64,000 nucleotides of DNA from Parachlamydiales bacterium. GTDB taxonomy: Bacteria; Chlamydiota; Chlamydiia; Chlamydiales; Rhabdochlamydiaceae. The position numbers were made by a program, and so were the translations under genes. Shown piece by piece: positions 42,159 through 42,371 of the stretch (positions are counted from its first letter, which is position 1; each line of letters opens with the position of its first letter). A model generated the notes under the pieces. It searched no databases. It had not been told where the DNA came from and saw only the letters and a list, made by a program, of their open reading frames with translations. Location of the stretch: NCBI GenBank assembly GCA_963705295.1, contig OY970065.1, positions 1,440,001 through 1,504,000 of the forward strand, read 5' to 3'.

Positions 42159-42371
42159 AAAAGAAGACCTCTCTACTTGTTGTGACATACCTGCAACACA
42201 TTTGTCGAAAGTCGCCAACAAAGTAGAGAGGATAGAAGCTGTTTTTTACTCAAGCTACATGGATGAAAGGTTGTACATGGCACAACCGATCGTCGAACCT
42301 CTATTAGAGGACTCTGGTACCCTGAGTGTTATCACTGCAACAAAAGTTGTAGTAGAATAACAACAGCTTCT
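42159..42371 (-). ncRNA. Candidate structured non-coding RNA
   Basis: Multibranch domain closed by AGAAGCTGTT/AACAGCTTCT, plus a 64-nt hairpin followed by TCTTCTTTT on the minus strand. Confidence 0.55.

Follow-up and report, generated by a model that had tools for sequence, protein, structure and literature searches.

The locus raises the question whether a stretch of about 210 nt, predicted from its pairing potential to be an independent structured RNA, is indeed an RNA gene, and if so to which class it belongs and what it could act upon. In the window, that is the whole 64-kb stretch of DNA analysed, the element is bounded by a tyrosine-phosphatase-like gene ending at 42157 and by AT-rich DNA that leads to a divergent gene starting at 42479. 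The minus-strand fold has an energy of -80.9 kcal/mol (z = -7.39, none of 200 shuffles as good); the plus strand folds nearly as well (z = -7.10), and the strand cannot be told from the folding energies by themselves. The closing stem P1 was recovered with 10/10 Watson-Crick pairs, the stem 42248-42254/42321-42327 with 7/7 pairs on the minus strand, one of them G-U, and the stems 42269-42274/42282-42287 and 42327-42332/42357-42362 were both perfect. The stem placed at 42298-42303/42305-42310 does pair, but is possible only as a 5-bp stem with a 3-nt loop; that at 42334-42341/42346-42353 is present with 7/8 pairs on the minus strand rather than in full; and the 64-nt hairpin 42168-42231, described as branched, has the perfect base expected (42168-42176/42223-42231) but is an unbranched long stem with internal loops. 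The element had also been called less AT-rich than its flank, which holds against the upstream promoter flank (41.3% against 13.1% GC) and not against the downstream gene, at 45.1% GC.

Table 1 Features of the predicted RNA gene and of its neighbours, in positions of the window.
Feature	Position	Strand	Basis or remark
Predicted ncRNA	42159..42374	-	about 216 nt, from the 5' end inferred from the promoter to the U tail
Putative sigma66-type promoter	42381..42409	-	conserved motif; -35 TTGAAG 42409-42404, 17 nt, -10 TAAATT 42386-42381
Overlapping alternative promoter (candidate)	42419-42392	-	TTGAAA-16-TATATT
P1, closing stem enclosing the structured domain	42371-42362 with 42243-42234 (42234..42371)	-	100% paired in 13 genus sequences
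P2, variable arm	42328..42361	-	homologs have it short, long or branched
Conserved core, three-way junction closed by P3 (42327-42321 with 42254-42248)	42248..42327	-	alignment of 62 cores
Junction strand GUACCA	42315..42320	-	last C and A identical in 62/62 family sequences
P4 hairpin CCUCU-AAU-AGAGG, loop nAn	42298..42310	-	alignment of 62 family sequences
P5/P6 arm, family-specific UCAU loop (CCAU in the window)	42262..42294	-	homolog comparison
P7 hairpin (42231-42168) with U-rich tail (42167-42159), resembling an intrinsic terminator	42159..42231	-	homolog comparison
rarA/mgsA, usual convergent 3' neighbour	35731..36993	+	name from homologs
DOT1-like methyltransferase, frequent 5' neighbour	44059-44643	-	Pfam PF08123 and synteny
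Phosphofructokinase-like gene (presumed), frequent 5' neighbour	44637-46109	-	synteny

We investigated whether the element belongs to a known RNA family. The Rfam scan of the window region at E<=10 gave a sole match, weak, irrelevant and outside the element, and the whole window gave none at gathering scores. Twenty homologous loci searched against all of Rfam gave 8 scattered sub-threshold matches, each family appearing once. No family being matched, the predicted novelty stands, as does the predicted lack of any tRNA, SRP, tmRNA, RNase P or common riboswitch signature; the genome has its own SRP RNA, RNase P RNA and tmRNA elsewhere, and the element did not match the tRNA family model. Our verdict is that the RNA is absent from Rfam 15 and represents a new family of ncRNA, though one whose broad kind is known. 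We found no prior description of it, nor of a comparable RNA in environmental chlamydiae, in the literature covered (subscription papers, the 2014 6S survey and bioRxiv supplements lay outside this coverage). A motif screen of 26 genomes included, from Chlamydiota, Chlamydia pecorum only, according to the available part of PMC8632094.

The distribution of the RNA was then traced with successive searches. When 61 relatives were searched at the DNA level, 24 had matches at E<=0.01; 13 same-genus genomes, the window's included, could be aligned across the whole element, and the remaining short DNA matches were dropped. The covariance model R1 (219 positions) had matches at E<=1 in 98 of the 129 genomes of the family. 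The core model R2, built from 62 sequences, gave weak matches in other families which adjoin rarA and have the same architecture, and model R3 includes 13 distant sequences from such other families. At E<=0.01, R3 matched 103/129 genomes of the window's family, presumably Rhabdochlamydiaceae (65/77 among those at least 90% complete) and 19/39 genomes of f42, the Simkania-containing family, matches to its own training sequences being circular. The f42 genomes matched outside the training set are G247, G255, G286, G295, G315, G330, G332 and G338, with E from 1e-7 to 1e-11. The RNA is also present in two smaller chlamydial families. It is a single-copy gene in the window's genome, and R3 found one match in 101 of the Rhabdochlamydiaceae genomes and two in G010 and G110. 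In G010, a full RNA gene on the minus strand of locus L028 (2154-2373) is followed by a 111-aa ORF and by a second copy (1501-1722) with neither promoter nor P1 5' strand, which suggests a duplication or integration scar.

Among 151 sampled genomes of the order, matches below E 1e-6 were confined to the families f1 (10/10), f10 (2/2), f27 (2/2) and f42. The RNA was not found in the other chlamydial families searched, where the top candidates per genome were scored, a procedure that does not amount to proof of absence. Of 19 loci with weak matches beyond the core families, 7 were rejected by eye as lacking the architecture; a further 20 weak loci comprised 16 inside ORFs, 2 unrelated intergenic hairpins and 2 true members. 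The 3' flanks of rarA in other families gave no candidate at 38/40 loci, and in a second set none of 30 (20 new, 10 repeated) was better than E 0.17. One tentative divergent candidate, between ispG and rarA in the f45 genome G172, was found by position alone (17.6 bits) and was not recovered in the genome-wide search. Next to the copies in f42 and f45, the RarA proteins bear the names Simkania negevensis, Simkania sp. and Ca. Algichlamydia. Scanning 185,579 species genomes for the pattern returned 44 loci, with titles that include Rhabdochlamydiaceae, Ca. Acheromyda pituitae and Chlamydiae; several carry non-chlamydial genome titles, and one of these, L246, titled Levyibacteriota, is a chlamydial-type copy adjoining rarA, probably on a misbinned contig. 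Two short-pattern matches in viral contigs were discarded, one lying in an apparent coding stretch and the other scoring 12.3 bits. Since Simkaniaceae and Rhabdochlamydiaceae together make up the proposed order Simkaniales (PMC9816063, in the part available), we infer that the window comes from Rhabdochlamydiaceae and that the RNA is a Simkaniales trait, and its origin in the Simkaniales ancestor or earlier is the best explanation.

No R3 match was obtained in 26 of the 129 family genomes, including the single-contig genome G007; in G072, ispG abuts rarA, and in G068 the core is decayed. The RNA is dispensable in some lineages, where it was lost or decayed, G007, G032 and G072 counting among the losses. 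Locus L300 of G068 carries, on its plus strand at about 5990-6170 and 7870-8025, a pair of structured RNAs that share this type of promoter. One is the decayed member, which follows ispG; the other adjoins rarA and is a different RNA closed by P1 (z -5.1), which lacks the P4 motif and may be a diverged duplicate.

The homologs defined the anatomy of the RNA, whose overall plan is P1{P2, P3{junction strand, P4, P5/P6}}, after which come P7 and the U tail. The alignment of the 62 cores with MAFFT showed 87.0% of cells paired, compared with 75.1 in shuffles, and both partners had changed in 23 of the 26 pairs of the core; none of 500 shuffles reached any measure, and slid-position controls paired at 38-46%. 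The pairs of highest mutual information are the proposed pairs, and no additional covarying (pseudoknot) pair stood out. All 7 pairs of P3 changed on both sides, with 95.4% pairing in the 62 sequences, and over the whole RNA in the 13 genus sequences 22/51 pairs were compensatory; these covariation figures are counts and not probabilities, the aligned kin not being independent. Within P4, pair 3 (U-A) and pair 4 (C-G) are invariant in 62/62 family sequences, giving the motif UCU-nAn-AGA. P3 is extended by a G.G opposition in 52/62 sequences and a U-A/U.G pair in 47/62. Around this core, the P5/P6 arm is shorter in other families and lacks the UCAU loop, P2 and the 5' end expand freely, and P7 is very variable in length and absent in some homologs, where the U's come directly after P1; the predicted length is 178-345 nt among 40 homologs. 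As P2, P5/P6 and P7 vary while the junction strand and P4 keep invariant positions, P7 would be the terminator and the junction the functional core. Conserved sequence concentrates in paired and junction positions rather than in any long single strand, which matches the expectation for recognition by shape. A reading of the junction strand as a -10-like TACCAT was dropped, the last T being present in under half of the cores. Longer homologs (L063, L066, L100, L060, L089, L246) have additional hairpins 5' of P1; several of these share a motif resembling CUCACGAC, which may be a second module specific to the lineage.

We examined the signals that bound the element and fix its strand. The predicted promoter-like AT-rich DNA upstream was borne out by a motif common to homologs, composed of a -35-like hexamer, 17 nt, TA(A/T)ATT, an A-rich spacer and AGGG. 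It occurs in 46/81 homologs compared with 8.8 expected, the motif having been derived from the same sequences, and a generic consensus promoter scan gave little excess (mean best score 9.3 vs 9.0 in shuffles). The motif agrees with the sigma66 consensus TTGA..TANNNT (PMC3333780, in part), and the available part of PMC10653925 gives no defined binding motif for Euo. In the window the promoter-derived start lies near 42374, and the covariance-model matches span 42159-42376. A simple terminator scan of the window did not call P7, whose loop is far longer than the scan permits. The 23 metagenome matches are all on contigs of at least 1.1 kb, so that no transcript ends are visible in them. Wobble pairs, predicted to favour the minus strand, do so: 112 G-U pairs against 76 A-C pairs when read in this sense. 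Promoter, U tail and G-U excess thus agree in pointing to the minus strand. The stretch is not strictly ORF-free, as had been stated, since a 52-aa TTG-started frame runs on the plus strand at 42202-42360, but this frame is not conserved, and plus-strand ATGs over the three phases (26/15/6) are not in a conserved frame.

These signals bear on the reading that there is no functional RNA at all, the element being a bidirectional terminator, a DNA site or a small plus-strand ORF. Such a reading would account for the good folding of both strands and for the 3' hairpin, which at many loci touches or overlaps the stop codon of rarA and might serve as a terminator for that gene too; the conserved part is however the 5' domain and not the terminator, the G-U excess speaks for the minus strand, the plus-strand ATG frame is not kept, and the element is intact where rarA is displaced or missing, which makes this reading very improbable. 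Comparison of the sequences showed a conserved, single-copy structured element, bounded by a predicted promoter and terminator, with no conserved reading frame. On this basis the observation is confirmed, and the original prediction of an independent sRNA, for which a homolog search in Chlamydiota had been proposed as a check, is supported: the window would carry a structured ncRNA gene on the minus strand, from about 42374 to 42159, conserved over several chlamydial families with compensatory changes.

The gene neighbourhood was also compared. The RNA has a convergent rarA downstream in 58/89 genome loci, within 400 nt of the core in 41 (57/83 among loci with at least 1 kb of sequence covered), and in 10/23 metagenome loci, which in part duplicate the genome set; the stretch covered holds no rarA in 31/89 loci. 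In the window, rarA was pushed 5.2 kb from the RNA by inserted genes. The upstream neighbours vary; besides the Pfam-based methyltransferase we take them to be pfp, a metallo-hydrolase, ispG and others, and the gene at 44637-46109 is likewise presumed to be phosphofructokinase-like. The DOT1-like methyltransferase, present in 123/150 chlamydial genomes and usually after pfp, was rejected as a co-distributed partner for that reason. Unrelated inserted genes accumulate on both flanks of the RNA. The insertions of the window (36957-43810) include a LRR protein (39562-40344), two proteins without Pfam match, tandem phosphatase-like genes (40592-41347 and 41357-42157, the latter a Pfam Y_phosphatase with a CX5R motif) and a weak actin-fragmin-kinase-like gene (42479-43810). 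In other genomes the same zone holds what we take to be a TnpB-like gene (L008) and a nucleotidyltransferase/HEPN-like pair (L012). The genes inserted around the RNA in the window have the look of candidate effectors of eukaryotic type, gathered in a plasticity zone.

What the RNA does can be approached from its conserved parts. The P6 loop suggests a base-pairing small RNA, such as IhtA of Chlamydia, whose UCAU loop would open pairing on AUG start regions, and a CAU complementary to AUG is present in this loop in 47/62 family sequences. Models for Hfq and CsrA (PF02599) each matched 0/5 carrier genomes, so that any pairing would have to be loop-initiated. The loop is however absent in other families, which retain the junction; the best P6 duplex with the 2392 start regions of this genome (-23.4) is no better than those of 10 shuffles (-20.3 to -25.1); and elsewhere in the genome no match reaches 18 nt. 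The alignments showed no seed shared across families, and the target scan covered one genome. We regard a base-pairing RNA as unlikely. A CsrB/Rsm-type sponge was discarded on the PF02599 result and on the lack of repeated loops in the folds.

The junction itself, compact and with few invariant nucleotides, could in the free RNA be a small-molecule-binding or catalytic fold, that is an orphan aptamer or ribozyme, and the opposition and pair that extend P3 would suit such a fold. Against it, there is neither an expression platform nor a conserved co-directional downstream gene, the RNA usually ending head-on against rarA, and the 20 homologous loci gave no Rfam riboswitch or ribozyme match; this makes an aptamer or ribozyme quite unlikely. 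A cis riboswitch was ruled out, the RNA ending at most loci in a terminator that faces a convergent gene.

We also considered a diverged homolog of ctrR0332/CPn0332, the abundant Chlamydia RNA which follows ltuB. Its size (about 240 nt), closing stem, terminator and unknown function are similar, according to the available parts of PMC2817459 and PMC3333780; rarA lies two genes from folD in several other families, and folD two genes from ltuB in three Chlamydiaceae-type genomes. Models R1 and R3 however gave no match at 3/3 ctrR0332 loci, ctrR0332 lacks the P4 motif and is processed from the ltuB transcript without its own promoter (PMC3333780, in part), and folD is 53 kb away in the window's genome. 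The sequences have already largely refuted this homology, which we hold to be highly improbable. In the three Chlamydiaceae-type genomes (L183-L185), a ctrR0332-type RNA is recognisable after an ltuB-like ORF as a multi-branched, stem-closed RNA with a terminator.

We lean, with reserve, towards a stable trans-acting RNA recognised by its shape at the junction, most simply by a protein. The gene would be transcribed by the sigma66 polymerase and P1 would protect the RNA ends; the RNA would act in trans by binding a protein through its compact three-way junction, with the CA of the junction strand and the P4 pairs that never vary as the recognised surface and with P2, P5/P6 and P7 as free expansion arms.

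As to the partner, to our knowledge the Chlamydiae have no recognised 6S RNA. RF00013 had no match in the window's genome at E<=10, and Rfam 6S was found in 0/41 chlamydial genomes at E<=0.1, the controls being detected. The rarA neighbourhood, the size, the predicted promoter and terminator and the lack of another 6S candidate could be explained by a canonical 6S member missed by Rfam. A fold without multiloop, however, costs 4.5-16.8 kcal/mol in 32 homologs and retains 2-6 hairpins, compared with 0.1 kcal/mol and one hairpin for the E. coli 6S control; the rod is disfavoured in all 32, and the branched fold is conserved with compensatory support. As the fold is branched and not a rod, the RNA would not be a 6S member, and we give the contrary extremely little credit. 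The divergent 6S-like RNA of the original prediction thus fails as family membership, while the rarA neighbourhood keeps its mode of action in play. In lactic acid bacteria 6S RNA has rarA as its conserved neighbour, as has 6S-1 in B. subtilis, and a rarA locus of Weissella carries a non-canonical promoter- and terminator-bounded RNA without the 6S rod (both from the available part of PMC8414754). The position of the RNA beside rarA matches this typical 6S neighbourhood of Firmicutes, although the linkage between distant phyla may be a coincidence. Ms1 of Actinobacteria, more branched than 6S and found where 6S is missing, binds the polymerase core (PMC9130861, in part), and the size range of our RNA spans both 6S and Ms1.

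Because 6S is unaccounted for in chlamydiae, because of this shared neighbourhood and because Ms1 illustrates that, in the absence of 6S, polymerase can be bound by a more branched RNA, RNA polymerase is the best named partner, a leading guess that we put forward tentatively. The RNA would then be a branched functional stand-in for 6S/Ms1, storing or tuning polymerase, plausibly in the non-dividing elementary body, where polymerase would be kept for restart. That the branched rarA-locus RNA forms a further structural class of polymerase-binding RNA, doing the 6S/Ms1 job in Simkaniales without a promoter-mimic rod, is similarly a rather doubtful though possible extension. It would not be the general 6S substitute of the phylum, unless too diverged, since it was not found beyond Simkaniales-like families and the other chlamydiae are also without an Rfam 6S. 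Alternatively, the partner might be another RNA- or DNA-binding protein, titrated by the RNA. For C. pneumoniae CPn0332, sigma28 binding was excluded, the reported test leaving out the core and other sigma factors (PMC3333780, in part).

Conserved single-copy structured RNAs beyond the known housekeeping set are rare. With its well-supported fold, its defined invariant core and a homolog in the cultivable Simkania negevensis, whose core lies at 1007998-1008076 on the plus strand of G267:C1, this one is directly testable. Polymerase binding, if true, would account for the 6S question in one order and broaden the forms of polymerase-binding RNA; if not, the predicted gene would still be a new RNA family in bacteria without detected Hfq or CsrA.

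Compared with known systems, the RNA resembles bacterial Y RNA (YrlA), which has paired ends and a branched core. It differs in having no Rfam match and no Ro60/TROVE partner found in the window's genome; a TROVE gene was present in 1/5 genomes tested and not found in the carriers G000, G045 and G154. The exception, the carrier G267 (Simkania, L260), encodes a TROVE-domain protein 350 kb from the RNA, so that a separate Y-like RNA may lie near that gene. With ctrR0332/CPn0332 it shares being a chlamydial structured RNA, of about 240 nt in Chlamydia, and differs from it in its processing origin and R1/R3 result. In the same way as the 6S RNAs encoded beside rarA in lactic acid bacteria and, as 6S-1, in B. 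subtilis, it is stand-alone, single-copy, about 200 nt long with paired ends, has its own predicted promoter and terminator and adjoins rarA (PMC8414754, in part); it differs by its branched fold with a conserved three-way junction, 6S being a rod with a central bubble, and by the lack of an RF00013 match. Like Ms1, it is lineage-restricted, longer and more branched than 6S and found where 6S is missing (PMC9130861, in part), and unlike Ms1 it has no Rfam match and no open-promoter-like bubble seen in the Simkaniales RNA. The Weissella RNA comes from another phylum and is likened here by description and not by sequence; like ours, it has a promoter and a terminator, lies beside rarA and dispenses with the 6S rod (PMC8414754, in part).
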